Positions 15,033 through 50,090 of a stretch of 60,499 nt of DNA are shown here, piece after piece (position 1 is the stretch's first letter; each line of letters opens with the position of its first letter). Position numbers and translations under genes: made by a program. The stretch is from Clostridia bacterium. GTDB taxonomy: Bacteria > Bacillota > Clostridia > Christensenellales > Borkfalkiaceae. The notes beneath the pieces were generated by a model. That model worked only from the letters and a program-made list of their open reading frames with translations, made no database searches and had not been told where the DNA came from. The stretch lies in the NCBI GenBank assembly GCA_029061155.1, contig JAIDSQ010000151.1:1-60499 (forward strand), given 5' to 3'.

Positions 15033-15527
15033 TTAATTTTCTACTGTAATTTCGCGCTCGAAAGTTTTTCCTCCGTCCCTCGTCTTCCACCAATCACCGT
15101 TTTGATCACGGTAGTCGTCGCTCCATTCACTGCTTTGCGTTAAAATAAATACGTTTCCCTCTTCATCCTTTGCCGTTAAAGATTTCTGCTTTTTCCCTCC
15201 AAAGTAATACATTACGCAAAACATAATGATACCGAACGGACCGATAAGTATAATTAGAGACACTATAAGCAACACGGTACTTAATGCGCCAGATTTTATA
15301 CTGTTTTTGCGGTATGACATATTTAAAAAAATCGAAATAAACAATAATATAAAATAACAAATTGCCATTATTACAGTCGCAGTAATATTTATTTTGTCAG
15401 AACCTCCAAACAAATAGGAAAACAAATAATATACTGCAATTACCCAAAGAACCACTGAAATAAGAAATAAAATTAAGCTTGCTGCTAATTTTTTCTTACA
15501 CGTATTTTTTATCACTTTCATTTCCAT
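15033..15527 (-). CDS. Hypothetical membrane protein (about 4 TM helices plus an acidic, Trp-rich C-terminal tail)
   Basis: 164-aa ORF, visibly AT-rich, hydrophobic N-terminal two thirds. Tail reads SEWSDDYRDQNGDWWKTRDGGKTFE. No family recognised. Confidence 0.6.
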   Translation of the reverse strand: MEMKVIKNTCKKKLAASLILFLISVVLWVIAVYYLFSYLFGGSDKINITATVIMAICYFILLFISIFLNMSYRKNSIKSGALSTVLLIVSLIILIGPFGIIMFCVMYYFGGKKQKSLTAKDEEGNVFILTQSSEWSDDYRDQNGDWWKTRDGGKTFEREITVEN

Positions 15528-15992: not shown

Positions 15993-18041
15993 ATGAATTT
16001 TACGGCTAAGGAAATAAAGAACGTCGCCGTCATAGGACACAGCGGCGAGGGTAAAACAACGCTTTGCGAGGCTATGCTTTTCAACGGCGGAGTTATCGAC
16101 AGAATGGGCAAGACCGAAGACGGCACTACCGTTATGGACTATGACGAGCTTGAAAAGGCAAAAAAGCTTTCAATCTACACTTCGGTTTCATACCTTTTAT
16201 GGAAGGGTTACAAAATTAACCTTCTTGATTTACCAGGCTTTTACGACTTCGAGGGCGAGCGCCATGAAGGACTTGCAGCCTGTGCGGGCGCAATTCTAGT
16301 AATAGGCGCCAACGGCGTACTTCCTATCGGTGCGGAAAGCGTAGTCGAATACTGTCTGCGCCTCGGCAAACCGCTTATCATATTCATTAACGGAATGGAT
16401 AAAGCCAACGCGGACTACACCGGCACACTTCACGCGCTCAATGAAAAGTACGCGGGCAAGCTTGCGCCCATACAACTTCCCGTTATGGCTGAAGGCAAGA
16501 TGACGGGCTACGTCAACGTAATTCAGGAAAGGTGCTACAAATTCTCCACGCAGGGACCTCAGGAAGTGCCCGTGCCCAAAAACCTTGTAGACGCCATGAA
16601 CGAAATGCAGGCAAGCCTTATGGAAACGGCGGCTGAAAACGACGAAATTCTTCTGGATAAATACTTCAACGACGGCAAACTTTCCAAAGAGGACGCCGTT
16701 CACGGAATAAGAAAAGGTATTGCAACAGGCAACGTAATACCCGTAATGGCGGGCAGCGCACTTCAGAACAGGGGCGTTATAAACCTTCTGGACGAAATTA
16801 TAAGATATATGCCCGCCGCCAACGAAAGAAAGAACACGCTTGCGACCGACCTTCTCGCTGACGACGTTGTAAACGTTGTGCGCGACCCCGACGGCGCGTT
16901 TGCCGCACAGGTATTCAAGACCGTTTACGACCCCTATTCGGGCAAGCTCAACTATATCAAAGTTTTCCGCGGAACGCTCAAATCTGGAATGACCGTTTAC
17001 AATTCCAACACCGACACCGAGGAGCGCATAGGACAGATATTTATGCTCCGCGGTAAAAAGTGCGAGCTTGTAACCGAACTTGTTGCGGGAGATATAGGCG
17101 CAATCAATAAGCTTTCGGCAACCGACACAGGCAACACTCTTTGCGCCGTCGGCACCAATCTGCGGTTCGACCCCATTCACTTCCCCAAGCCCTCTTTATC
17201 TCTTGCCGTTAACGCGGTAAACAAGGGCGAAGAGGACAAAATGTTCTCTGGCTTTAACAAGATGACCGAGGAAGATTACACATTCTCGATAGAAAAGCGC
17301 GCGGAAACGGGCGAACTTGTATTGAGCGGACAGGGCGAAGTTCATCTTGAAGTACTCGCCAAAAAGCTTAAGGCGCGCTACGGCATAGAAGTTAAACTTA
17401 CCGAACCGCGTATTCCCTACCGCGAGACTATACGCGCCGTTGCAAGCGCCGAAGGCAAGCACAAAAAGCAGTCGGGCGGACACGGACAGTACGGACACTG
17501 CAAAGTGCGTTTCGAGCCGTGCGAGGAAGAATTCGTATTCGGCGACGAAGTCGTGGGCGGAGCAGTTCCCAAGCAGTATATACCCGCGGTTGAAAAGGGC
17601 TTAAAGGAATGTATGTCGCGCGGCGTGCTTGCAGATTACCCCGTGACGGGCGTTAAGGCTGTTTTATACGACGGCAGTTACCACGACGTGGACTCTTCGG
17701 AAATGGCGTTCAAGGCGGCGGCTGCGCTCGCGTTCAAAGAGGGAATCAAGAACGCAAAGCCCGTGCTTTTGGAGCCTGTCGTAAAACTCAAAGTAGCCGT
17801 CAAGGGCGAATACCTCGGCGGAGTTATGGGCGACATATCCAAGAGGCGCGGAAGAATTTCGGACAGTCACACGGAGGGCGAAATCACTACGGTTATAGCC
17901 GAAGTTCCCCTTTCGGAAATTGCCAAGTACTCGACCGATTTAAGGGGTCTCACCCGCGGACAGGGCAAGTTCACTTCTGAATTTTTGCGCTACGAGGAAG
18001 TCCCTCCCCAGCTCGCCGAAAAGATAATAACTAAAAACTAA
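15993..18041 (+). CDS. Elongation factor G paralog (EF-G II-like translational GTPase) with non-canonical G motifs
   Basis: 682 aa with EF-G domain order through the C-terminus. G1 is GHSGEGKT, G3 is DLPGFYDF (Phe where EF-G/EF-Tu have the catalytic His), and G4 is NGMD instead of NKxD. Confidence 0.85.
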   Translation: MNFTAKEIKNVAVIGHSGEGKTTLCEAMLFNGGVIDRMGKTEDGTTVMDYDELEKAKKLSIYTSVSYLLWKGYKINLLDLPGFYDFEGERHEGLAACAGAILVIGANGVLPIGAESVVEYCLRLGKPLIIFINGMDKANADYTGTLHALNEKYAGKLAPIQLPVMAEGKMTGYVNVIQERCYKFSTQGPQEVPVPKNLVDAMNEMQASLMETAAENDEILLDKYFNDGKLSKEDAVHGIRKGIATGNVIPVMAGSALQNRGVINLLDEIIRYMPAANERKNTLATDLLADDVVNVVRDPDGAFAAQVFKTVYDPYSGKLNYIKVFRGTLKSGMTVYNSNTDTEERIGQIFMLRGKKCELVTELVAGDIGAINKLSATDTGNTLCAVGTNLRFDPIHFPKPSLSLAVNAVNKGEEDKMFSGFNKMTEEDYTFSIEKRAETGELVLSGQGEVHLEVLAKKLKARYGIEVKLTEPRIPYRETIRAVASAEGKHKKQSGGHGQYGHCKVRFEPCEEEFVFGDEVVGGAVPKQYIPAVEKGLKECMSRGVLADYPVTGVKAVLYDGSYHDVDSSEMAFKAAAALAFKEGIKNAKPVLLEPVVKLKVAVKGEYLGGVMGDISKRRGRISDSHTEGEITTVIAEVPLSEIAKYSTDLRGLTRGQGKFTSEFLRYEEVPPQLAEKIITKN

Positions 18042-21737: not shown

Positions 21738-21800
21738 CATTGAGGGGTGCGTTTTTCGGCGTGTTTCTCAATGGAACACGTCTTTTTTATTGGAGTTATT

Positions 21801-22478
21801 ATGTTATATGAAAAGAAAAGAATAATAACACATAGGTCAATTTGGCTTATACTATTGTTGTTAGGAATTATTATACCGACTATTATTGCATATGCACCGC
21901 CCAAAGATGTAGAAATTATAGACGATAACGGCTACATCATTAACTATTACGAATCACTTAATGAAACAAATTGCGAAATTGAAGTTATATTCAATACTAA
22001 TGTTGACTCCGGATATATTACGGTTGCTTTTTATGACGATAACGACAAATTACTTTCAAAAGAAGAAAAACATTTTTACGGTTACGGTAACACTCTTTCG
22101 TCAACCTTCTTTATAGACGGAAAAGTTGACAGTTATGAAATCTTGGATTACAACAATATCAGTGTTTCAAATGATGCAGAATTTATTGCGATACAACTTT
22201 TTATCTATGCCGATATATTCATTTTTTCGTTTTTTATTGCATCGTTATTATTGTCTTATAAAACATACAAATACAACGATTTCGATATAATTATATATGC
22301 GGGCTGGTATCATCATTATTTAAAAGTAAACGGAACAAAAATGGACGAACATAACACCTTAATATCTTTTACAGCAATTCCATTATCGTGCACATTAGAT
22401 GACGGAACTGAACTTAACGCTACAATCACAAAGTCAAATAGAATTTCATTAAAAATAAACAATCAACTATATACATAA
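21801..22478 (+). CDS. Hypothetical two-TM membrane protein
   Basis: Start set at MLYEKKR, with GGAG 5-9 nt upstream. One TM lies near the N-terminus and a second near residue 150. Very AT-rich; no family recognised. Confidence 0.6.
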   Translation: MLYEKKRIITHRSIWLILLLLGIIIPTIIAYAPPKDVEIIDDNGYIINYYESLNETNCEIEVIFNTNVDSGYITVAFYDDNDKLLSKEEKHFYGYGNTLSSTFFIDGKVDSYEILDYNNISVSNDAEFIAIQLFIYADIFIFSFFIASLLLSYKTYKYNDFDIIIYAGWYHHYLKVNGTKMDEHNTLISFTAIPLSCTLDDGTELNATITKSNRISLKINNQLYT

Positions 22479-22492
22479 AAGGTAATATAATT

Positions 22493-22930
22493 ATGGACGA
22501 TAAATATTTTACTATAAAAGAATATCCCGAAGATGTCTATTGTGCCGTTGGACAGATTATTCAACATTCACAAGAATGGGAACAGGAATATAAGCGACTT
22601 GCTTTAATGTGCAATATTCCTGTAAAAAAAGTAACTAAATCCTCACTCAACAAATTAAATGATGCGTTAAAAAAGCTTAATTATATCAGCCAAGAGGACT
22701 ACAAAAAATTAAAAACAGTTATTGATATAAGAAACTATATAAATCACAGCTTTTACTTAATAGATTTTCAAAAATCGTACGATAGCTATGAACAAAGGCT
22801 TAAAACATTAGAATATAAATTAAACTCTGCACAGTTTTTAATTTTTGAGGCTACTGATTTTATCGACAATATTATAGATAAATTACAAGGTAGCAGTATT
22901 ATGCGTCCAAATATTTTAGACAAAACTTAA
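22493..22930 (+). CDS. Hypothetical small helical protein with an R-x4-H (HEPN-like) motif
   Basis: 145 aa; IDIRNYINHSF fits the Rx4-6H HEPN RNase signature. Size and helical character are HEPN-like. It starts 14 nt after the preceding gene. Confidence 0.5.
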   Translation: MDDKYFTIKEYPEDVYCAVGQIIQHSQEWEQEYKRLALMCNIPVKKVTKSSLNKLNDALKKLNYISQEDYKKLKTVIDIRNYINHSFYLIDFQKSYDSYEQRLKTLEYKLNSAQFLIFEATDFIDNIIDKLQGSSIMRPNILDKT

Positions 22931-36926: not shown

Positions 36927-37090
36927 CGTTCGTAGAAACTATTTGTATTTTATCATTTTCACCTCTTTATTTCAAGCAAAAGAATATTCCCGTCGACCAT
37001 TAATCTTTTGGCAAAACCTTCCGTTTTAACGCTTTTTTTACGGTGCCTTTGTTATAATGCAGAAAATTGTTATTACAAAAAGGAGATTTT

Positions 37091-38269
37091 ATGAAAGGCA
37101 AGTTTTTTTTAAGTTTAGTATGTGCTGCTGCCGTTTGCTTTACTGCGGCAGGCTTGGCGGGCTGTGCAGGTAACAACGACAGCGACAACACGGCGGAACC
37201 TCCCACCGAAGGCTTGGAATACACCCTCAACGACGACGGCAAAAGCTACAGCGTGACAGGCATAGGTTCGGCAACCGATACAAAAATCGTTATTTCTGCA
37301 GAGTACGAAGGAAAGCCCGTAACGGATATCGGCAAGTCGGCATTTGCGGAAAATCAAAGCATTACCAGCGTTACCGTCCCCGACAGCGTAACGGTTATAA
37401 AAACCAGCGCTTTTGCGGACTGCTCTTCTTTGAAAGAAGTTAAACTTTCCTACGGGCTTGAGGAACTGTGGCAGAGCGTTTTCTATAATTGCAGTGCGCT
37501 TGAGAACGTAGTTTTACCGGACAGCCTTATGTCTGTCGGCGCAGGCTGTTTCTCCGACTCCGACGGCAGCAAACTGAAAAACTTCCGTTACACCGAGCAG
37601 GAAGGCGTACTGTACGTGGGTACGGCGCGCAACCCCTATCACGCTCTCGTTGGTATGGCGACTAAGGGCGCCACGACCGCTTTCACCGTACATAAGGACA
37701 CTAAAGTTATTGCCACCGGCGCGTTCGAAAACAATCGCAATACTTTGCAGAATATTTTTTTCCCGCAGGAACTGACCGGAATAAACGTGCCCCGCTCTTT
37801 ATTCAACAATCTGTTAAGAACAGGCAAATTCAATGTTAATTCGGCGAACGGCTATTATTTGGGCACTGCGCCCCAATCGGGCAACAAAGGCAATCCGTAC
37901 GTAGCGCTTATCGACGCCGCTTCTGCCGGGTTTGCACTTAAAGACGGAGTAAAAATCATCGCCGGCGACGGACTTAGAGCTAATACACAAAACAGCTTTG
38001 CCACGCAAACCGAAATAGTTATTCCCGACGGCATTGACAGTATCGGCGAATACGCCTTTTTAGGATTTGACAAGCTTGAAAAAATTACTCTCCCGTCAAG
38101 CCTCACCATTCTGTCCCGCCACTTATTCGACAAGTGCTCCGCGCTTACGGATATTACATTTAAAGGCACGAAAGCGCAGTGGAACGCAATTAAAAAATCG
38201 TCAAATTGGGACGTGAATACTGCCGACTACACAATTCACTGCACCGACGGCGATATCGCAAAAGCATAA
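37091..38269 (+). CDS. BspA-type leucine-rich-repeat lipoprotein
   Basis: Start set at MKGKFF, with AGGAG upstream. Lipobox LAGC. LRR_5-like units (SAFA.N.S.TSVT.PDSVT.I..SAF..C). Confidence 0.8.
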   Translation: MKGKFFLSLVCAAAVCFTAAGLAGCAGNNDSDNTAEPPTEGLEYTLNDDGKSYSVTGIGSATDTKIVISAEYEGKPVTDIGKSAFAENQSITSVTVPDSVTVIKTSAFADCSSLKEVKLSYGLEELWQSVFYNCSALENVVLPDSLMSVGAGCFSDSDGSKLKNFRYTEQEGVLYVGTARNPYHALVGMATKGATTAFTVHKDTKVIATGAFENNRNTLQNIFFPQELTGINVPRSLFNNLLRTGKFNVNSANGYYLGTAPQSGNKGNPYVALIDAASAGFALKDGVKIIAGDGLRANTQNSFATQTEIVIPDGIDSIGEYAFLGFDKLEKITLPSSLTILSRHLFDKCSALTDITFKGTKAQWNAIKKSSNWDVNTADYTIHCTDGDIAKA

Positions 38270-39426: not shown

Positions 39427-40953
39427 CTAATTCATTTGTCCGATAAGAGTGCCGACGTTATTACCGCTTATACGCTCACCAGATTTCCAATTTGCCGTAG
39501 GGGCTAAGCTATGCAAGTTGGTTGCACTCGAGCCCATAGGACTGCTTGCCGAAGTGCAGAACGGAATTATCGTCTTGCCCGAAAAATCGTAACTTTCAAG
39601 GAACGTATAAATAATTTTGGGCGCTTGACCGTGCCATATAGGGTAACCTATAAATATGACGTCGTACTGTTCTATGTTATAAACGCTTCCGCTGATTTCG
39701 GGGCGGGCGGAACTGTCCGCCTGTTCTCTGTCGGCTCTGCAATTTGTATAATATTTTAAGTCGTCTGCGGTGTACGGAACGGCAGGCGTTATCCTGTAAA
39801 GGAACGAATTGCTTACCTGACTTTGTACTGATTCCGCAACGCCTTTCGTCGTATCCGTACACGAGAAATATGCAATCAGAACTTTTGTATCGTCGGGCGT
39901 TGCGGACGTACCCGCATACACAAGCTGCACATCTCGGTTGCCGTAATTCCACATAGACGAGCTTTTTTCGATAGCGTTCCATTCCATTTCCATCCCCGCG
40001 TAGTTAATCTTCGTAATCGTGCTTTCGTTAATAAATGAAATGCCGATTTTCGTAACCGACTTCGGTATATTTAATTCGGTTATTCCTCTCGTTCTCTGGA
40101 AGGAACGCGCTTCCAGTACCTTTACCCCGTCGGGAATGTTAGGATTGCTTGCACCGCGCACGAGCGTTTGCGTTGCACTTTCTATCAGGTGTCCGTTTTC
40201 GCTGCGGTAAGTAGTATTGCCGCTTGCAACCGTAAAGCTTATAACCGAGCAGTTATTGAACGCACTGTTGCCGATAGCCGTCACTCCCTTTGGAATAGTG
40301 ATATTTTTAAGCGCCGAGCAAGCAGAGAACGCGTTGTTTCCGATAGTTGTTAAAGCGCTGTTAGCCCCGACATATACCACACCCAATTGTCTGCAACCGT
40401 AAAAAGTATTCTGTCCTATTTCCGTAATTGTATCGGGAATTGTAACAGAAGTAAAGGCTTTTTGAGCAAAAGCGCCCGTACCGTGATGACCCTGAATTTT
40501 TGTTACGGGCAACCCTTCGTGTTCGGCGGGAATAACGACAATAGTTTCTTCTCCCACGTCCGTAACCGTATAGGTATTGCCCTCTTTTTCAAACGTAAGA
40601 CTTGCCGTGCTGTCTGGCAACTGGGCTTCCGCTTCCCACCCCGCATAAAGCGTAATATTGTCATTTACCCTGTCGGTATCGAAGTTCCACTCGGTATCGT
40701 TCTCTTTAAACCAACCCGTAAGATAGTATCCTTCTTTTATAGGCGTTTGAGGACGGACCGCTGGATTGCCTTCGCGTATCCTTTGGCTTTCAACCGCACT
40801 GCCGCCGCGGCTGTCGAAAGTTACGGTATAGTATGTTCCCTTATCTTCACCGCCCCCGCCATTGGCGTCCGTATTGCCGTTGCAGCCGGTAAATGCAAAG
40901 AGCAAACACATTATGCTGGCAATAAGAATGTAAAATATATTTTTACTTTTCAT
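39427..40953 (-). CDS. Lipoprotein: Listeria-Bacteroides repeat plus BspA-type LRR plus C-terminal flavodoxin-like domain
   Basis: 508 aa, lipobox FTGC. YTVTFDSRGGS...GYYLTGWF...ITLYAGW repeat, LRR_5 units, and the C-terminus VLIAYFSCTDTTKGVAE...FIGYPIWHGQAPKII..FLE...GKTIIPFCTS. Confidence 0.8.
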   Translation of the reverse strand: MKSKNIFYILIASIMCLLFAFTGCNGNTDANGGGGEDKGTYYTVTFDSRGGSAVESQRIREGNPAVRPQTPIKEGYYLTGWFKENDTEWNFDTDRVNDNITLYAGWEAEAQLPDSTASLTFEKEGNTYTVTDVGEETIVVIPAEHEGLPVTKIQGHHGTGAFAQKAFTSVTIPDTITEIGQNTFYGCRQLGVVYVGANSALTTIGNNAFSACSALKNITIPKGVTAIGNSAFNNCSVISFTVASGNTTYRSENGHLIESATQTLVRGASNPNIPDGVKVLEARSFQRTRGITELNIPKSVTKIGISFINESTITKINYAGMEMEWNAIEKSSSMWNYGNRDVQLVYAGTSATPDDTKVLIAYFSCTDTTKGVAESVQSQVSNSFLYRITPAVPYTADDLKYYTNCRADREQADSSARPEISGSVYNIEQYDVIFIGYPIWHGQAPKIIYTFLESYDFSGKTIIPFCTSASSPMGSSATNLHSLAPTANWKSGERISGNNVGTLIGQMN

Positions 40954-41737: not shown

Positions 41738-42429
41738 AGTACACCCTTCTTCTTTTTTGATAAAATTTGTAAGCCTTTGTTTGAGTAATAGCCTAATGCC
41801 CCGAACAGGCAAATCACGCAAACGTAGTCGAACAAAAACTTCATTACGGATTCGCCGTATTGCAGGAATTTGAAATGTGTAGTTAAGAACATTTCTTCCC
41901 ACATCGCTCTCTGCACGAATACCACAATTCCGTAAACGGCAAGCCCCAAAAACACCGCTCTCAAAATCCACTTAACTGCAATTCCCGCTTTATCAGACAA
42001 CTTTATTCTTTTCGCCAAGCCGATAAATAATGAGAAATGAAGTCCCAGATGCAGAGACATAAATATGAAAGTCCACATCGTCGCAAACAAGTGTAGCTGT
42101 CTGCCCGTCATTATGTCGCCGTTTATATTCAGCGGCAAAAAGATTTCGGCGGATATGAGCATTGCACTTGCAATATTACAAGCCATTAATACCCATAAAA
42201 GGATATTGACAACGAGCTTATAAATTCGGGTAGCCGTGTACTTGCCTTTGAACAAATTTTTATACCAACGCAAATTCAAGCTGTTATGAATAAGAAAAAG
42301 TACTAATACGCTGATACCCATCCACTCATGCTGCGTTTCACCGAACAGGTGATACCCCATTAAACATATCAGCAAAGCGGTCATAGCCAAGTCAATTAAA
42401 ATCTTGACTGCAAGTAATGTCTTTTTCAT
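41716..42429 (-). CDS. DUF4405-family integral membrane protein
   Basis: 237 aa; the opening LIDL.MT.LLI.LMGYHL.GE..HEW.GI..LVLF.IHN.LN..WYKNLFKGKYT is typical of DUF4405. His residues lie in the TM helices. Confidence 0.7.
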   Translation of the reverse strand: MKKTLLAVKILIDLAMTALLICLMGYHLFGETQHEWMGISVLVLFLIHNSLNLRWYKNLFKGKYTATRIYKLVVNILLWVLMACNIASAMLISAEIFLPLNINGDIMTGRQLHLFATMWTFIFMSLHLGLHFSLFIGLAKRIKLSDKAGIAVKWILRAVFLGLAVYGIVVFVQRAMWEEMFLTTHFKFLQYGESVMKFLFDYVCVICLFGALGYYSNKGLQILSKKKKGVLCNTEKV

Positions 42430-43859
42430 TGCGTTACACCGTTTCGGGCAAGCCAGCCGGCTACGTCAGAAGAAAGCGAACTCCCGCCCGAATAATGAAT
42501 AGATAAACCTTCTGTGAGCGGCGAATTGGGTGCGAGCTTTGCAATAGCCGTAAGGCTCTGTCCGAATCTGCCGCCGCCGTGCGAACAGAACGGCATAATG
42601 GTTTTGCCCGATAAATCGTATTCTTCCAGAAAAGATGCTATAGGCATAGGGATTGACGCCCACCAATTCGGATAACCTAAAATTACCGTATCGTATTCTT
42701 CGATGTTATCTATCTTATTTTTGATTTCAGGTCTTGCCTGCGCCTTTTGGTCGCGCTGTGCCTGATCAAGTACGGTATTGTAATTTGTCGAATAAGGCTT
42801 GACAAGCTCTATTTCAAAGAGATATGCGCCAGTTTGTCTTTGAATTTCTCTTGCAACTCCGCGTGTATTTCCACCCCAGGAGAAGTATACAATAAGTATC
42901 TTTCCGCCCGTTGCGGCGTGGAGTCCTCCGCCCGTTACTACGTTTCCGACAACCGCACTGCCGTTTCTTACAAGGCGAAGCCCTACGGCAAAACTAACGC
43001 TCGTTGCGGCAAGCGACGCCCTGTATGCGCTTCTCGTATGCTTGCCGAAGTCGTTCCAACCGCCGCCGCGATTGACGCGCAAAGTACCCGTACTTGCGCC
43101 CGTCGGATCGGTCTGCTCTTCCGTCGAATACTCGCCGTAATAATCCCAACACCACTCTCCGACGTTACCATGCATATTGTATAAGCCCCATTTATTGGGC
43201 GAAAAACTGTTTACCGCAACGGTAGTTTGACGGTATAAGCCCGGCTTTGTTTCGAGCGCACCCTGATTGAAGTAGTTATCTTCGATGCCGTAAGGGTAAT
43301 GGCCGTAAAAGTTGCAAGTATCAGCGCCAGGCACTTTCTCGGTATTGAACGGCGTGTACGTTCCCGCACGGCACGCAAATTCCCATTCGGCTTCGGTAGG
43401 TAATCTGTATCCGTCCGCTTGCCTGTTCCAAGTTACGTTTTCGCCTTCTATCGTATAAACGGGGGTAATATTTTCCGCTTCACTTCTTGCATTGCAGTAA
43501 CGCAAAGCGTCGTACCACGAAATGTTTTCTACAGGTAAATTTTCTCCTTTGAAATTGCTCGGATTGCTGTTCATGACCGAAGTATATTCCGCTTGCGAAA
43601 CCTCATAGGGACTGATATAAAAATCGCTTACCGTTACGGTGTGCTTTGTTTCGTCATCTCCGCGCCATTCTTCACTCTCGGAACTTCCCATAGAAAAGGT
43701 CCCGCCGTTGATTTTAACCATACCCTGAGCATTTGTTACAGGCGGCGCATCTCCGTCGCCGTTACCGCCTATCCACTCGTCAGGCGCATTTTGACCGCAA
43801 CCCGCAAAACACAATATACACAATATTAATGTTAAAAATATACCGAATATTTTTTTCAC
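42426..43859 (-). CDS. Lipoprotein: FGE/SUMF1-type (sulfatase-modifying-factor fold) domain fused to a C-terminal flavodoxin-like domain
   Basis: Start set at the GTG at 43859, with AAGGAG 7 nt upstream, giving (M)KKIFGIFLTLILCILCFAGC. The FGE-like block includes ISWYDA..YCN and RV.RGGGW...RSAYR...GLRLVR. The flavodoxin block includes ILIVYFSWGGNT and LGYPNWW. Confidence 0.75.
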   Translation of the reverse strand: MKKIFGIFLTLILCILCFAGCGQNAPDEWIGGNGDGDAPPVTNAQGMVKINGGTFSMGSSESEEWRGDDETKHTVTVSDFYISPYEVSQAEYTSVMNSNPSNFKGENLPVENISWYDALRYCNARSEAENITPVYTIEGENVTWNRQADGYRLPTEAEWEFACRAGTYTPFNTEKVPGADTCNFYGHYPYGIEDNYFNQGALETKPGLYRQTTVAVNSFSPNKWGLYNMHGNVGEWCWDYYGEYSTEEQTDPTGASTGTLRVNRGGGWNDFGKHTRSAYRASLAATSVSFAVGLRLVRNGSAVVGNVVTGGGLHAATGGKILIVYFSWGGNTRGVAREIQRQTGAYLFEIELVKPYSTNYNTVLDQAQRDQKAQARPEIKNKIDNIEEYDTVILGYPNWWASIPMPIASFLEEYDLSGKTIMPFCSHGGGRFGQSLTAIAKLAPNSPLTEGLSIHYSGGSSLSSDVAGWLARNGVTQ

Positions 43860-43863
43860 CGGT

Positions 43864-44472
43864 TTACTCCTTGTTAAACCCAAGTCCCGCAACATAGCTG
43901 TCTATAGAGCTTTGAGATGCACTGCCCGAAAGTTTTGTACCGTCTAGCCAAGTGGCTTTGCTTGCCGAACCGTGCAAATTTTTTGCGCTGTTGCCAACGC
44001 CGCTTCCGCCCGAAGTACAGAACGGAATTATCGTCTTGCCCTCAAAGTCATAGCTTTCAAGGAAGGTATAAATAATCTTCGGCGCTTCCGCCCACCAAAT
44101 GGGATAACCGAGAAATACTATATCGTACCCGTCCATATTTTGCACGCTGCCGCTGATTTCAGGACGCGCCGAGCTGTCGTTTTGTTCTTTGGTCGAGCGG
44201 CTGTCTCTATTGCCGTAATTTAAGTCCGCCGAAGTATAAGGCTGTGCAGGCGTAATTGCGTACAGTGTACCGCCAGTAGACACCGCTATTTTTTCGGCAA
44301 CGCCCTTTGTTGTGTTCGTGCAAGAAAAGTATGCAACAAGCACTTTACCATCCGTGCCTTCGGGTATTTTATCCGTATTTCCGTCTTCTGTGCAACCGAC
44401 AAAACCAAAACATATACAAAGTATTGTGGCAATTCCTAAAAGTACTGAAATGAAGGTTTTCTTATTTCTCAT
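43864..44472 (-). CDS. Flavodoxin-like lipoprotein
   Basis: 202 aa, signal peptide with lipobox FVGC, VLVAYFSCTNTTKGVAE...FLGYPIWWAEAPKII. Confidence 0.8.
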   Translation of the reverse strand: MRNKKTFISVLLGIATILCICFGFVGCTEDGNTDKIPEGTDGKVLVAYFSCTNTTKGVAEKIAVSTGGTLYAITPAQPYTSADLNYGNRDSRSTKEQNDSSARPEISGSVQNMDGYDIVFLGYPIWWAEAPKIIYTFLESYDFEGKTIIPFCTSGGSGVGNSAKNLHGSASKATWLDGTKLSGSASQSSIDSYVAGLGFNKE

Positions 44473-45700: not shown

Positions 45701-45950
45701 TTGCAAATATCCCAACCTTCAGTCGCACTTATGATTGACTTTTTTCTTTTGTAAGAATGTGGTTGCAACCCCGAACTTGTCATGAAATGGGTTGGGCACG
45801 AGTTTGACGCGGACGTCAAGACTTCGCGCGTGGACAGGGGCTATACAACCTATTCGCAGGAGTACATCCTGCAAGAAATTAACAAAATAGACTATGAACT
45901 GTAAATGACGCACAAACACACCTGTTTTGGGCTGAAATCGGGCAAAAAGC

Positions 45951-45971
45951 ACTTCCCAATTACTTCCCAAA
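45951..45971 (+). repeat. Tandem decamer ACTTCCCAA(T/A)
   Basis: acttcccaatt followed by acttcccaaa, just before hairpin 45981-46012. Compare the tandem at 50120-50141. Confidence 0.6.
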
Positions 45972-45980
45972 CATAACAAA

Positions 45981-46012
45981 ACGGGAGAAATTTTGTGAAT
46001 TCCTCCCGTTTT
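45981..46012. terminator. Hairpin with flanking A/T runs at the left edge of the AT-rich islet
   Basis: acgggagaa-attttgtga-attcctcccgt followed by ttt. Confidence 0.55.
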
Positions 46013-46180
46013 GATGCGTGTATTGACCAAAACTCCTCTTTTTAGTGGGTATTAAGATAGGCAGTTGAACAAAAAGCCTTTTTTTCAAATACTGCAAAAA
46101 ACAGTCTTATAGCTTATAATCTAGTTTCTTTTATACTTTTTCAAATTTATTGATTCGACAAAATGCTATGCGGAAAACAA

Positions 46181-47116
46181 TTAAAGCCATTCGGGCAAAG
46201 TAGATAGACTTATCAGTCTTTGCCTTTGCTCATCATCTTCTTCTCTCAATGCAAATTGTGATAACTTTAAAATAATATGTTTCAACTTTTCAAAAGTTTC
46301 TTTATTATATTTTATTGAACCGGAATATAATTGATTAAGTAATGCCATTTCCTTTCTTATAAATATTGATGGGATTACCCAATCGGATATATCTTCCCAT
46401 TCATCAATTAAACCATTTTTCCTTTTCACCGCCGTCAAAGCTTTATCACAATGTCCTTTGCAACAAGCATACGCATCAACATATTCATTGCTATTTAAAT
46501 TTTCCAATAAAACTATTATGGCTTTATTATCATGCAAATGCTCTTTAAGTAAGTCTTTACCGCAATATTCACACAACAAAGGCTCATATTTATCAAAAAT
46601 AATTGACGGCTCATTTTTTCGTGTTTTTGCCAATTCTTTTTTATAGCTCTCAGGGAAAAAGCGTTTAATTATACCATTCTTTTTTGCTTTAATAAGTTCA
46701 GTTTCAATTCTCTCGTTACTAAATATCTCAATTTTACGCCCTTTCTTTTTAAACGCATCTAATTTATTATTAAGCCCCGAAGAAGGTAGCGTGGAGTAAA
46801 ACCCAATAAACCCATCAACGCTATGTTGCTCCATTCTATCACTAATATTCTCTTCGTCTACAGAATTAACAGCTTGCCCAGAATGAGCTTTGTGTTTACA
46901 GCTTATCAACCATTTAAAATCTGCAGAAGATAACGCACCAAATTGATGCTCTACGGCAATCAAATCTTTGCCGTCATCTGCGCCCCTATTGGGCTCCGAA
47001 ACAATTTCAAAATGCAACACTTCCGAAAAAAATTCTCTTGCAAACAATTCAAAAGAATCTTGATCGCCATTTCCGGTATTAGCAGGCGGAATTTCCTTAA
47101 AATCTAATAAAGCCAT
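46181..47116 (-). CDS. Mrr-like (PD-(D/E)xK) restriction-endonuclease-fold N-terminal domain fused to an uncharacterised Cys-rich C-terminal domain
   Basis: 311 aa. GADDGKDLIAVEH...WLISCKHKAHSG...VDGFIGFYSTLPSSG follows the Mrr_cat layout. The C-terminal half carries CEYCGK...CCKGHC. AT-rich. Confidence 0.6.
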   Translation of the reverse strand: MALLDFKEIPPANTGNGDQDSFELFAREFFSEVLHFEIVSEPNRGADDGKDLIAVEHQFGALSSADFKWLISCKHKAHSGQAVNSVDEENISDRMEQHSVDGFIGFYSTLPSSGLNNKLDAFKKKGRKIEIFSNERIETELIKAKKNGIIKRFFPESYKKELAKTRKNEPSIIFDKYEPLLCEYCGKDLLKEHLHDNKAIIVLLENLNSNEYVDAYACCKGHCDKALTAVKRKNGLIDEWEDISDWVIPSIFIRKEMALLNQLYSGSIKYNKETFEKLKHIILKLSQFALREEDDEQRQRLISLSTLPEWL

Positions 47117-47174
47117 ATTTTATTTCTCCTTAATTTTTTTCAACATACGGCACAACATCTTTAATTACAATATT

Positions 47175-49745
47175 TTATTTCGTGTCAGATAAATAAGCTT
47201 CCAGCATAATTATATGCCTAACCTCTAACTCGTTTATAAAGTCTTCCATGAAATCAAAATCAATTTGACCGTCTTTTGTGGGTAACTGAATTTTGTCGTT
47301 TTTTATCTTCTCCCAAGAACACATATTTTCATATCCAAACTTCTTATTTAAGAAACAGAGGGCATTTGCTAAAAATAGCCCTTGTCTATCGGATATAACA
47401 AACTTCGGTTTTAATGAAAATACACGTGCGTGTGTAACCATTTTATAATTGAAATTGCGGTAAAAAGCAAAACCGAACATATCTACGGTAATTGTTTTTG
47501 TTTCGAAAACTTTAGCCGTAATATCTGTTTTACCTAAAATCCCGTTATTTGTTAATCCTGCAGTTATTACATAATCGCCGCATCCGTTTATGTGTGTTTT
47601 TTGTATATCAAAATCCCCATTGCTGCTTGTAAACAATTCTTCCAATTCATATTCTCCCCACTTAACACTTTGTAGCTTTTCATTAAGTTTAGTAGATATT
47701 CCGCCTAGGCTGTCATCCTCTTGATTATAACCCTTCAATACGGAAGAAACTTCCCACGAAAGATAATCGCTTACAGTTTTTTTAAAATCTTCAAGCGTCG
47801 GTTTAGTGTCTATCGGGGCGACTTGATTCCAGTCTGCGCCGTTTTCGGGATCAATATTTCCTTCGTAATATTCGTTTTCAGTAAAAATATTCAGTTTAGA
47901 TTTTCCGAAACGCACCAAATCCACTATTTCTTGGTAACGCTCTTTCGCTCTGTCAGTATCTCTCAAATTACAACTTGCTTTTTTACGGTTTGTTCTCGTA
48001 TATCCGTCGTTAGAAAAATCAATAAATTTGACCGTATCGTCTTTTTGGTGAGTTTCTCCTACGCGGAAAACATATATATTTGGATGAACGCTTGACTTGC
48101 CTATAAACAAGTCCTCAGGCATTTTTATACTTGCAAGCAAAGTGTTGTGCTTCAATATTTTTTTGTTGTATTCAATTGCTTTGCCCGAGCCCGCCGAGTT
48201 CTGTATGATAATTGCAGCATAGCCCTTATTCATCATAGAAAGAGCTCGCTCGACAAATATCATTCCCTTGCCTTCTGATGAATAAGGGGGATTAAGAACA
48301 AATGCCGTTGCCGGGAACTTTTTGTCTGTGTCGCCAAATCCGTAATTACCGTCAAAATCTTTTAACGAGTCTTTGTTCAAAATGTTTGAGCTACCGTCAC
48401 CCATCAAAATCATATTAAGTATCGCAAGCATATATACGCTTGGAAGAATTTCTAATCCAAGCAGTTGATTAGCTTTAATCGCGGCCGATTTTTTTGCAAA
48501 TTCATCGGGCGATTTTATTTTATTCTTAGCATCAATAAGCATTTCGTTCATCGATGCAACAAGAAGACCCGCCGAACCCGTAGCAAAGTCCCACACATAA
48601 GAATCTTTGTCTATGCGCGCAAGCTTTGCCAAAAGTGTAGCTATGTAAGACGGCGTTAAAACAACATCATTTAGCTTGTCTTGTGAAAAGCCAAGCCAAT
48701 TATACATTTCGTTAAACAGTTTACCAGTAAAGTCAGTTGTTAAGCCTATTTTATAGTAAATGCCCAAATCGTCTACAATCTTTGTAAATACTCGCTTTAA
48801 TTGACTTTCGCCGTTTTCCACCTTATTTATATTTTCATTAGTAAGCGTATTTTCAAGTGTACGAACAATTAAATCCTTCTTTGTTTGAGGTATCTTTTTT
48901 TCCTTTAGAAAACCTTTAATTTTGCGCAAAATTATATCGCCGTCGCGGTTTCCGTCTTCGGTGGAAGATTTTAAATCTGACTTATCAAGAATTGGAACTT
49001 TATTTGGTATTCCAATTGTTGCAATAATCGACGCGGCAACAAGATAAACGCGGTCGTTTTCTCCAAGTCCTTTTTCATTTTGATATATGTCATTATTCAG
49101 TTTTACAAGGCTTGCGTCGATTTCGCGTTCACGCTGCTCTTTCAGTTTGTCAATTTCTTCTTGCGTTAATTGCAAGCGCTTAACTTTTTCAATAAACTCG
49201 TCAAAATTCTCTTTTTTGAGAAATGAAAAATCGCTATATTCTCCAACTTCTTGTCCTATACCAAAATTACTTTTAGATACAAAATATACACTGATTTTAT
49301 GTTGCAGTATTCCTCTTTCGTCTTTATAGCCAGTCATACCAATAGCAATAATGTCGGTATAACTTGTATAGTGCATAATAGCATTTGCGTAATGCACTGC
49401 GCCGTTTACAGCATATGAATTAATGTTTTTAAAGTCAGGAGTGTTCTTTGCTGTTTTATTTGCTACCTTTCCATCATCGTTTAATTTAATCAACTTATCC
49501 TTATAGCCTTTATATTCTATTAAAATAGGATAGTCAACTAAATTTTTGTCACGTAGTAATAGTTTAGCGTCAGGGCGATTGCCGCCAACTCCGCCATTTT
49601 TAGAAGCATAATCGTTGAGTGCTTGATCTATCGCTGTATTTAGCGATTCCTGTTCTAATTTGTAATCCAACCCGTATGATTTAAGCCATCCATTTGCTAA
49701 ATCAGCAATATTGGGCTCAACTGATTGAATAGTTGCTTTTGCCAT
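47175..49745 (-). CDS. Single-chain Type IIG-like restriction-modification-specificity enzyme (PD-ExK nuclease plus gamma-class N6-adenine methyltransferase plus one HsdS-type TRD)
   Basis: Start set at MAKATIQ, with AGGAG upstream. RPDAKLL...ILIEYKG is a PD..ExK motif, VWDFATGSAGLL is motif I, and VLNPPYS is motif IV. The C-terminal ~190 aa resembles a Type I S-subunit target-recognition domain. Confidence 0.7.
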   Translation of the reverse strand: MAKATIQSVEPNIADLANGWLKSYGLDYKLEQESLNTAIDQALNDYASKNGGVGGNRPDAKLLLRDKNLVDYPILIEYKGYKDKLIKLNDDGKVANKTAKNTPDFKNINSYAVNGAVHYANAIMHYTSYTDIIAIGMTGYKDERGILQHKISVYFVSKSNFGIGQEVGEYSDFSFLKKENFDEFIEKVKRLQLTQEEIDKLKEQREREIDASLVKLNNDIYQNEKGLGENDRVYLVAASIIATIGIPNKVPILDKSDLKSSTEDGNRDGDIILRKIKGFLKEKKIPQTKKDLIVRTLENTLTNENINKVENGESQLKRVFTKIVDDLGIYYKIGLTTDFTGKLFNEMYNWLGFSQDKLNDVVLTPSYIATLLAKLARIDKDSYVWDFATGSAGLLVASMNEMLIDAKNKIKSPDEFAKKSAAIKANQLLGLEILPSVYMLAILNMILMGDGSSNILNKDSLKDFDGNYGFGDTDKKFPATAFVLNPPYSSEGKGMIFVERALSMMNKGYAAIIIQNSAGSGKAIEYNKKILKHNTLLASIKMPEDLFIGKSSVHPNIYVFRVGETHQKDDTVKFIDFSNDGYTRTNRKKASCNLRDTDRAKERYQEIVDLVRFGKSKLNIFTENEYYEGNIDPENGADWNQVAPIDTKPTLEDFKKTVSDYLSWEVSSVLKGYNQEDDSLGGISTKLNEKLQSVKWGEYELEELFTSSNGDFDIQKTHINGCGDYVITAGLTNNGILGKTDITAKVFETKTITVDMFGFAFYRNFNYKMVTHARVFSLKPKFVISDRQGLFLANALCFLNKKFGYENMCSWEKIKNDKIQLPTKDGQIDFDFMEDFINELEVRHIIMLEAYLSDTK

Positions 49746-50090
49746 TTTCTGCACTCCTAAACACAAATTCGTATAATTATAATAACATAATTTCCGCAAA
49801 AATCATAGTTTTTCGACACATAGTTTCAAATAATATAACAAAATGTAACTTATCTATTGTTTTATGAAACTACATTCACGCATTTAGACGACTGAATTCT
49901 GTGAAAATGTCATAATTTTAGGACATTTTCAACATCCCAACACATTCAAGTCTGACAAGGAGGGGCATATAGGTCAGCTTCGCAAAGCTGTGTTGAACTA
50001 AAATTATCGTGCTATTTTTGGCATAAAAAAAGACCGACCGCGTAAATGTTACAAACTTACACGAGCGGTTTTTGCCCTTTTTTGCCTAAA

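Follow-up and report, generated by a model that had tools for sequence, protein, structure and literature searches.

Uncharacterised defence candidates in which a nuclease is joined to an unknown domain are common. Type IV restriction systems found within restriction-modification (RM) or BREX operons, such as TgvAB, BrxU and HEC-05/06, complement the host system of the operon (PMC11411939; bioRxiv 10.1101/2024.01.29.577857); TgvAB, for instance, does so for the Type I RM operon in which it resides (PMC11411939). PrrC, in turn, sits inside the RM locus EcoprrI (PMC12707154), and seven of the nine genes that Payne and colleagues picked solely for their nesting in defence operons proved protective (bioRxiv 10.1101/2024.01.29.577857). 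In phage P2, the slot between genes G and FI is occupied by Z/fun, a phage-exclusion gene, and this Z-region is known to receive genes by horizontal transfer (PMC3091744). Here we compare with these systems a gene of a Clostridia bacterium (Borkfalkiaceae; assembly GCA_029061155.1, contig JAIDSQ010000151.1), located in a stretch of 60,499 nucleotides (nt) that was analysed as a whole and is referred to as the window. The encoded protein combines a predicted Mrr-type nuclease head with a C-terminal domain that carries a putative Cys4 zinc site, and its gene lies downstream of a Type IIG RM gene. We consider it probable that the family formed by this protein and its homologs serves in defence against phages or plasmids. 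More tentatively, we favour a stand-alone, Type IV-like (modification-dependent) endonuclease that is carried on mobile DNA and complements an RM neighbour.

An earlier sequence-only reading of the window had proposed that this open reading frame (ORF) is a candidate defence gene with a nuclease head, and the motifs it quoted, GADDGKDLIAVEH, WLISCKHK, VDGFIGFYSTLPSSG, CEYCGK and CCKGHC, are all present in the translation. The N-terminal part, of approximately 160 amino acids (aa), is predicted to be a PD-(D/E)xK nuclease of the Mrr type, in agreement with that proposal. The Pfam family Mrr_cat (PF04471) matches residues 19–90 below its gathering threshold (E 0.011; 16.3 bits against 21 bits), a precomputed PF04471 match is present in many full-length homologs exhibiting 44–47% identity, and relatives of the head that carry different tails score up to 32 bits. 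Conservation was assessed in an alignment of 40 diverse sequences, down to 44% identity. Within the head, this alignment revealed the invariant residues E23, G45, D47, G49, D51, E56, W69, L70, S72, C73, K74 and H75, as well as G102-F103 and F106-Y107-S108-T109; F22, which precedes E23 in helix 1, is nearly invariant. An AlphaFold2 model generated from the same alignment (mean predicted local distance difference test score, pLDDT, 87.7) shows the alpha-beta-beta-beta-alpha-beta core of restriction endonucleases, with helices at residues 21–33 and 91–97 and strands at 37–40, 52–59, 64–74 and 102–107. Foldseek comparison of the head with the PDB returned AspBHI as the best match (4oc8, E 2.3e-5), along with MspJI (4f0p, E 2.3e-4 to 5.9e-4), the Mrr-like protein AF1548 (1y88), Mus81 and EcoT38I, the Foldseek probability being 1.00 for AspBHI, MspJI and AF1548; Mus81, the N-terminal nuclease of Avs4 and a poxvirus resolvase are among the weaker matches. 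The invariant residues E23, D51 and K74 are placed as in the Mrr-type catalytic constellation, and the spacing D51-X20-S72-x-K74 equals that of MspJI (D334...Q355-A-K357), in which D334 and Q355, the latter within the (Q/E)AK motif, are both essential by mutagenesis (PMC2938202). The head thus appears to carry a complete, invariant catalytic constellation in which one motif position deviates.

The C-terminal half bears the invariant cysteines C182-x2-C185 and C219-x3-C223, together with the invariant residues D224, W240, P249, N261 and R300. The zinc site that the sequence-only reading had placed on CEYCGK and CCKGHC stands as far as four invariant cysteines are concerned. Its CCKGHC part has to be redrawn, since the first cysteine (C218) and the histidine (H222) of this motif are not conserved and the true pattern is CxxC...Cx3C. 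When residues 166–311 were modelled alone (pLDDT 87.7; predicted TM-score 0.79), the domain displayed, in this order, a short hairpin of the zinc-knuckle kind with the CxxC, two long strands, a helix whose start directly follows C219, one more strand and a tail of three helices. The hairpin cysteines pair with C219-x3-C223 where a strand gives way to a helix, a geometry that would fit a structural Cys4 zinc site. The domain could not be assigned to any family, as had been claimed: it has no Pfam match, the best E-value of a PDB sequence profile search was 0.24, and the best Foldseek E-values were 1.9 against the PDB and 0.11 against BFVD, with nothing below E 0.1. The label "sensor-like" that it had received is an interpretation. 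A degenerate GIY-YIG fold was considered and rejected; the Foldseek matches to GIY-YIG/I-TevI structures are weak (E 0.2–5, TM-score of about 0.25), and the GIY/YIG tyrosines, the arginine and the glutamate lack invariant counterparts. A search with the C-terminal domain only yielded 16 short proteins, which are likely to be fragments or products of split genes, and revealed no additional fusion partner. The output of the queries with either subdomain was confined to proteins below about 280 aa, and the full-length homologs of 300–320 aa were missing from it. On present evidence, the domain appears specific to this family, the absence of other architectures being weakly supported.

In profile searches, the whole protein fell into no characterised family, in line with the sequence-only reading. 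Profile searches against PADLOC-DB v2.0.0 and NCBIfam 20.0 returned zero families at E-values up to 1, none of the HEC or PDC candidate models of PADLOC matches it, and comparison with PHROGs and with PDB sequences yielded nothing significant. An exhaustive search of 1.84 billion representative proteins retrieved 1007 relatives at E ≤ 0.001. Full-length homologs, of approximately 300–320 aa, exceed 1000, and the family comprises more than 1000 sequence clusters across many phyla, whose members are named only "restriction endonuclease" or "hypothetical protein". When one genome per species was considered, 165 of 185,579 species encode a relative, distributed among Bacillota, Pseudomonadota, Bacteroidota, Cyanobacteria, Verrucomicrobiota, Acidobacteriota, Patescibacteria and other phyla. 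This sparse and patchy distribution is that expected of mobile accessory genes. Furthermore, dozens of the 1007 relatives share residues 1–160 only (about 45–57% identity), in proteins ranging from 164 to 1045 aa. No PADLOC model matches these differently tailed relatives, and a search with the head alone, which listed proteins of 160–280 aa with assorted short tails, revealed no recognisable modified-DNA reader or sensor domain. Judged from these architectures, the head appears to have been shuffled widely among proteins as a module, as is typical of defence effectors.

The genomic neighbourhoods carry much of the argument. A clear association links the homologs to RM systems, to defence genes and to mobile elements. 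Neither outcome that the sequence-only reading had named as refuting was observed, and the earlier proposal of a candidate defence gene is supported, "candidate" still being the right word. Clustering of 664 neighbour ORFs from 79 loci identified no conserved partner gene among those loci; the largest neighbour cluster is represented in 8 of the 79, at variable positions. The neighbour families tallied include ResIII, Methylase_S, HSDR_N, SIR2_2, TIR_2, RVT_1, HNH, AIPR, KwaB, IS110 and recombinases, mixed with housekeeping genes. The family recurs in defence islands, RM operons and cargo spots of mobile genetic elements in unrelated genomes, among them two moron positions in prophages, and its members are nested in RM systems of four unrelated types, namely BcgI-like IIB/IIG, Type II, Type I and Type III.

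The BcgI-like arrangement is that of the window and of loci L081–84, L094–96 and L005, where a BcgI-like R-M protein (87–91% identical among them) and a specificity subunit are followed by the nuclease gene; in the window version, a single target-recognition domain (TRD), fused to the R-M protein, makes up the specificity module. The cassettes of L094 and L005 consist of R-M, S and the nuclease gene, with no separate HsdR-like gene. Downstream of the cassette there is either a TIR protein or a 1169-aa protein accompanied by SIR2 and Fic, and in L081 the cassette is located on an element with an integrase and Mob_Pre. The link to the Type IIG gene that had been drawn from the sequence is real in the window; it does not amount to a family-wide partnership, being one co-inherited cassette of a few close relatives. 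The 1169-aa protein (L081:8999-12508, also in L082–L084), which lies directly downstream of the closest homolog, has no Pfam or PADLOC match. Situated between that homolog and SIR2/Fic on an integrative mobilisable element, it is a candidate for another uncharacterised defence-island gene.

The remaining RM contexts are of other types. In L085, the order is integrase, helix-turn-helix protein, N6_N4 methyltransferase (MTase), Dam-type MTase, Type II restriction endonuclease (PADLOC REase_II, E 9.5e-209) and then the nuclease gene. In L087 and L107, the gene lies between the Type III genes mod (MTase_III, E 3.5e-178) and res (REase_III, E 1.9e-176), separated from them by 2 and 13 nt. An HKD-Snf2 helicase, DUF4391, a PDC-S15 candidate and additional methyltransferases surround this arrangement. 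The DUF4391 protein (L087:5331-6053, L107:3836-4558) is conserved between the helicase (PADLOC C3a139, E 1.9e-215) and mod, which suggests that the nuclease gene is nested in a larger composite of helicase and Type III system. In L001, it follows the Type I genes HsdS and HsdR. Since single-seed phmmer searches of the 79 loci for RM genes found few, the RM linkage is not universal, although the close clade and some distant members show it strongly.

Other loci place the gene among different defence functions or on mobile DNA. A Clostridium perfringens locus has the order SIR2, homolog, SIR2_2 and HD; in L110, an SLFN-type helicase, a NUDIX-PRTase, a reverse transcriptase and a TIR protein precede the homolog and a PDC-M30A candidate follows it; in L016, a 1009-aa SIR2_2 protein lies next; and in L011, L030 and L031, HerA/STAND-like, DEAD+UvrD and SMC-like ATPases are located immediately upstream. 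The most abundant cluster, P0027 (302 blocks of the collection), sits amid the type IV secretion system (T4SS) genes of a conjugative element from a Firmicute, and a Shedu gene is close by. In that type of setting (L088:4612-8897, and L089–L093), the homolog on a Firmicute conjugative element is flanked by ORFs of 507, 209 and 237 aa, which are conserved, have no Pfam or PADLOC match and lie between a VirB4-like ATPase and an NlpC/P60 hydrolase. Additionally, in L108 the gene and an adjacent large serine recombinase lie where a prophage ends, a 4.9-kb MOBQ plasmid of Acinetobacter has a homolog as one of its five genes, and on a Sinorhizobium (S. meliloti) plasmid the homolog adjoins an integrase, a TrlF-type ATPase, a caspase-family protein and AbiE. 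In Methylocaldum, the homolog is solitary, with long intergenic spacers.

Among phages, the only match is in the P2-like prophage P2-EC67 (AJ512685.1), where ORF1 of the "proviral Z-region" (protein accessions CAD54909.1 and WP_057075509.1) is 40% identical over the full length. This ORF has its own annotated promoter and flanking inverted repeats, and was labelled "putative lysogenic conversion protein" by its depositors. In E. coli genomes, its neighbours are gene G (tail-fibre assembly) on one side and gene FI (tail sheath) on the other. The full P2-EC67 locus is present in 5 of 5426 complete E. coli genomes, of which 1671 match at least part of the AJ512685.1 prophage sequence. Cronobacter, Raoultella, Serratia, Morganella, Citrobacter and E. 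albertii have orthologs of at least 90% identity, for which "restriction endonuclease" is the only name given. No characterisation of the P2-EC67 gene, of its accessions or of a single-gene system combining Mrr and zinc domains was found in the literature.

A defence role is best supported because the nuclease is intact and has no obligate partner, and because the gene is nested in four RM types, keeps the company of SIR2, TIR and reverse transcriptase genes and occupies cargo positions in prophages, integrative and conjugative elements (ICEs) and plasmids. As regards the mechanism, the protein would restrict incoming phage or plasmid DNA by cleaving it. Target discrimination would come from its C-terminal domain, probably through recognition of something in DNA that the host lacks, for instance a hypermodified base; the domain may contribute to oligomerisation as well. 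In this manner, the enzyme would cover phages that escape the modification-blocked RM system travelling with it. The Type IV-like reading is favoured on three grounds: the nearest relatives of the head are modification-dependent enzymes of the Mrr/MspJI type; a stand-alone, apparently constitutive nuclease must intrinsically spare host DNA; and Type IV is the class best documented as accompanying modification-blocked RM systems. The solitary or MTase-free occurrence of the gene in several loci is also that of a stand-alone enzyme without a cognate methyltransferase. Nothing yet points to a mechanism outside the known categories.

Several observations weigh against this interpretation. The acidic or glutamine position of the (D/E/Q)xK motif is an invariant serine (S72) in the family, for which E56 or E23 may compensate in catalysis. 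The C-terminal domain resembles, in Foldseek searches of the PDB and BFVD, neither a modified-base reader (SRA, PUA/EVE or winged helix) nor any solved fold. Its net charge is negative (median -3), unusual for a module that binds DNA; it could nonetheless be a new type of reader. The host islands encode MTases for N6-methyladenine (m6A) and N4-methylcytosine (m4C), and L107 also encodes a C5 MTase. Any modification dependence of the enzyme therefore cannot be on simple m6A or general 5-methylcytosine, and hypermodified bases would be an example of what it recognises instead. Moreover, the enrichment in defence contexts was estimated from the loci alone, without a genome-wide background, L059 and L064 have only housekeeping neighbours, such as RNR and DnaE, and no published experiments on any family member were found in the literature. 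Finally, the same head is fused elsewhere to TPR repeats and to a weakly STAND-like tail, an architecture typical of triggered effectors and not of Type IV enzymes.

This last observation leads to the strongest alternative, a triggered nuclease of the abortive-infection or guard type, which we regard as rather unlikely. According to this explanation, the head would be auto-inhibited by the acidic zinc/helical domain until it is released by a phage protein, for example an anti-restriction DNA mimic, or by lost activity of the neighbouring RM system, and would then degrade DNA indiscriminately, as a functional analogue of PrrC in the EcoprrI locus or of PARIS sensing Ocr. Within RM operons, between hsdS/hsdR or mod/res genes, the gene does occupy the slot of PrrC (PMC12707154), and SIR2 and TIR effectors of the abortive type are frequent neighbours. 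The C-terminal domain, besides being acidic, diverges faster than the head (mean pairwise identity of 40% against 57%), as expected of a sensor in an arms race, and the Avs4 nuclease figures among the weaker structural matches. The head is also about 50% identical to those of the TPR protein and of a 1045-aa protein with weak nSTAND3/NPHP3_N matches, but both the STAND and the TPR matches of these tails remain below the Pfam thresholds. Against a guard function, moreover, the RM partners are of four unrelated types and many loci lack RM genes, so that specific masking by one RM enzyme cannot be general; the protein also contains neither a PrrC-type ABC ATPase sensing module nor any other NTPase or known ligand-binding domain. 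The more specific proposal that the Cys4 domain is a new infection sensor, which locks the head until a phage anti-restriction factor appears or the RM system fails and thereby forms an ATPase-free "RM guard", seems doubtful.

Less probable still is a nuclease that serves the mobile element itself, be it in competition or exclusion between elements, in post-segregational stabilisation, or in recombination or processing during transfer or integration. The abundant cluster among conjugative T4SS genes, the copies on small or conjugative plasmids and those beside integrases or recombinases are consistent with such a role, as are the name "Holliday junction resolvase-like" that one source gives to a head-only relative and the weak structural matches to Mus81 and the poxvirus resolvase. 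Nevertheless, the family is not linked to any single type of element or recombinase, the slot it fills in P2 is a dispensable moron position known to hold an exclusion gene, and homologs are nested in chromosomal RM operons and, in one chromosome, solitary. Competition between elements is mechanistically a defence function, and this alternative therefore overlaps with the Type IV-like reading. An auxiliary or alternative cleavage subunit, recruited by and dependent on the methyltransferase/specificity complex of the neighbouring RM system, would fit the co-orientation, tight spacing and probable co-transcription with RM genes in several loci, and the L094 and L005 cassettes without a separate HsdR-like gene, but is very improbable, because every neighbouring RM system has its own nuclease (Type IIG/BcgI-like R-M, REase_II, REase_III or HsdR), the partners are mutually unrelated and many homologs have no methyltransferase nearby.

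The features of the islet in the window are collected in Table 1. The nuclease gene and the Type IIG gene occupy a low-GC islet of about 4 kb (guanine-plus-cytosine (GC) fraction of 0.33–0.37 across 46–50 kb, against about 0.41–0.49 in the flanks). AT-richness, co-orientation and the short distance to the Type IIG gene had been noted from the sequence, as had the islet's insertion into other DNA, and these observations agree with ours, the flanking genes encoding a LysR regulator, a flavodoxin and ABC-2 transporter components. No convincing direct repeats flank the islet borders, and the window contains no tRNA or integrase gene that would explain its arrival. A terminator scan found no terminator-like hairpin in the spacer between the two genes, and co-transcription is therefore likely. 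The two genes most likely form a co-transcribed cassette and the islet is probably a single operon, whose probable end, and that of the islet, is the hairpin downstream. The promoter-like site upstream of the Type IIG gene is a consensus match only, such sites being no more numerous in this region than in shuffled sequences, and is a weak candidate for the promoter of that gene. A 103-aa ORF (45719..46030) that overlaps the hairpin and matches no family was discarded as probably spurious.

Table 1. Features of the low-GC islet in the window.
Feature	Position	Strand	Basis or remark
Gene of the 311-aa two-domain protein (predicted Mrr-type nuclease plus Cys4 zinc/helical domain)	46181..47116	-	ORF, ATG start
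N-terminal domain, residues 1-160, predicted PD-(D/E)xK nuclease of Mrr_cat type	46637..47116	-	Pfam, Foldseek, conservation
C-terminal Cys4/helical domain, residues 166-311	46184..46621	-	Conservation, domain model
Spacer of 58 nt with the strong ribosome-binding site AAGGAG, 8 nt before the ATG	47117..47174	-	Sequence
Type IIG/IIB restriction-modification-specificity fusion, 874-aa ORF	47175..49799	-	Upstream of the nuclease gene, co-oriented
Terminator-like hairpin, 16 pairs and T-rich tail (inverted repeat I2)	45977..46013	-	About 170 nt past the stop codon of the nuclease gene
Promoter-like site, TTGAAA-16-TATGAT	49802..49829	-	10/12 matches; just upstream of the Type IIG ORF

The Type IIG ORF matches the PADLOC model REase_MTase_IIG almost end to end (E 1.9e-236), Specificity_II as a second module (E 1.4e-69) and the Pfam families N6_Mtase and Methylase_S. 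Its layout comprises a BcgI-like R-M part (about residues 19–699) and a single TRD (about 705–873), and its true start is probably M19, near position 49745. In the relatives compared (L081:4825-7955, L094:251-3468, L005:6741-9982), the BcgI-like R-M subunits are separate proteins and show 87–88% identity, across about 690 aa, to the first 699 or so residues of the window protein; its last 170 or so, the single TRD, are only about 37–38% identical to one half of the separate two-TRD specificity subunits of those relatives. Judged from these alignments, the window protein looks like a recent gene fusion with a TRD swap that would change recognition specificity, and the fused enzyme presumably acts as a homodimer on a symmetric bipartite site.

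Elsewhere in the window, a second low-GC islet (21747-22930, forward strand; GC 0.29 at 22–23 kb) is bordered by a histidyl-tRNA-synthetase-like gene on one side and a PP-loop ATPase gene on the other. It contains a 243-aa ORF without Pfam match and a 145-aa ORF with a borderline match to the HEPN RNase toxin HepT (23.0 bits against a cut-off of 23.5), which may constitute a toxin-antitoxin or defence pair of the MntA/HepT type. A third low-GC patch (15033-15527, reverse strand; GC 0.35 at 15–16 kb) holds a 164-aa ORF without Pfam match, just upstream of an EF-G paralogue (15993-18041). Additionally, several neighbouring lipoproteins, encoded at 37067-38269 on the forward strand and at 39427-40953, 42426-43895 and 43864-44472 on the reverse strand, repeat an unusual fusion theme, in which N-terminal parts resembling leucine-rich repeats or FGE-sulfatase are combined with a C-terminal flavodoxin-like domain; Flavodoxin_4 was confirmed for 43864-44472.

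If a defence role is confirmed, a widespread single-gene system carried by prophages, ICEs and plasmids would be added to the bacterial defence catalogue, and a new zinc-binding domain would be defined, whether it reads DNA or senses infection. Should the protein act as an RM guard, it would represent a widespread, minimal, single-polypeptide analogue of PrrC and PARIS, extending from Clostridia to E. coli prophages. Its nesting in four RM types makes the family a good test case for layered restriction, which would combine a modification-blocked system with a modification-dependent one, or an RM system with a guard. Since PADLOC v2 and NCBIfam miss the family, defence inventories of gut Clostridia and of enterobacterial prophages under-count it. 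The E. coli P2-EC67 ortholog offers an immediately tractable model, and a confirmed role would resolve the annotation of AJ512685.1.

Among the known systems, the closest structural matches to the head are the modification-dependent Type IV/IIM enzymes MspJI and AspBHI, which share with it the Mrr-type PD-(D/E)xK core, the D-X20-xxK spacing and the organisation of two domains in a single polypeptide. Sequence identity to them is only 11–19%, and the domain order is reversed, the nuclease being N-terminal in the protein described here. Furthermore, MspJI has an SRA-like reader and a Q/E-A-K motif, whereas the Clostridia protein has a Cys4 zinc/helical partner domain without SRA similarity and the motif S-C-K. 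EcoKMrr (PF04471) resembles the head in the FE motif of helix 1, in GxDxGxD and in xxK followed by a G-h-h-h-T strand, and mrr likewise adjoins RM genes in variable defence regions (PMC12707154). In Mrr, however, an N-terminal winged helix precedes the C-terminal nuclease, while here the nuclease comes first and there is no winged helix. DpnI (Type IIM) is alike in size, about 250–310 aa, and in its N-terminal PD-(D/E)xK domain with a small C-terminal accessory domain (PMC12707154), but that domain is a winged helix reading G6mATC, and no such fold or sequence similarity was detected in our protein. Because their defining reader domains are absent, the protein falls outside the MspJI, EcoKMrr and DpnI families.

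By genomic position, the likeness is to the Type IV systems TgvAB, BrxU and HEC-05/06 and to the guard PrrC, all of them defence genes nested co-directionally in RM, BREX or Hma operons. These are GmrSD-like proteins (DUF262/DUF1524 HNH) or ABC-ATPase anticodon nucleases, and none has the Mrr-type head or the zinc domain found here. With PrrC and RloC, in which an N-terminal ABC-ATPase domain is joined to a C-terminal anticodon nuclease, the protein shares genomic position only; it has no ATPase and its nuclease belongs to another type, so that it does not count as a PrrC-type guard. The prophage-exclusion morons of P2 (Z/fun, old and tin) are comparable in that the E. coli ortholog occupies the Z/fun slot and has its own promoter, although the equivalence of the P2-EC67 gene to Z/fun is positional only and its exclusion role is putative. 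Taken together, these comparisons present the protein as a candidate single-polypeptide nuclease defence system, Type IV-like in character, with a previously undescribed zinc-binding partner domain.

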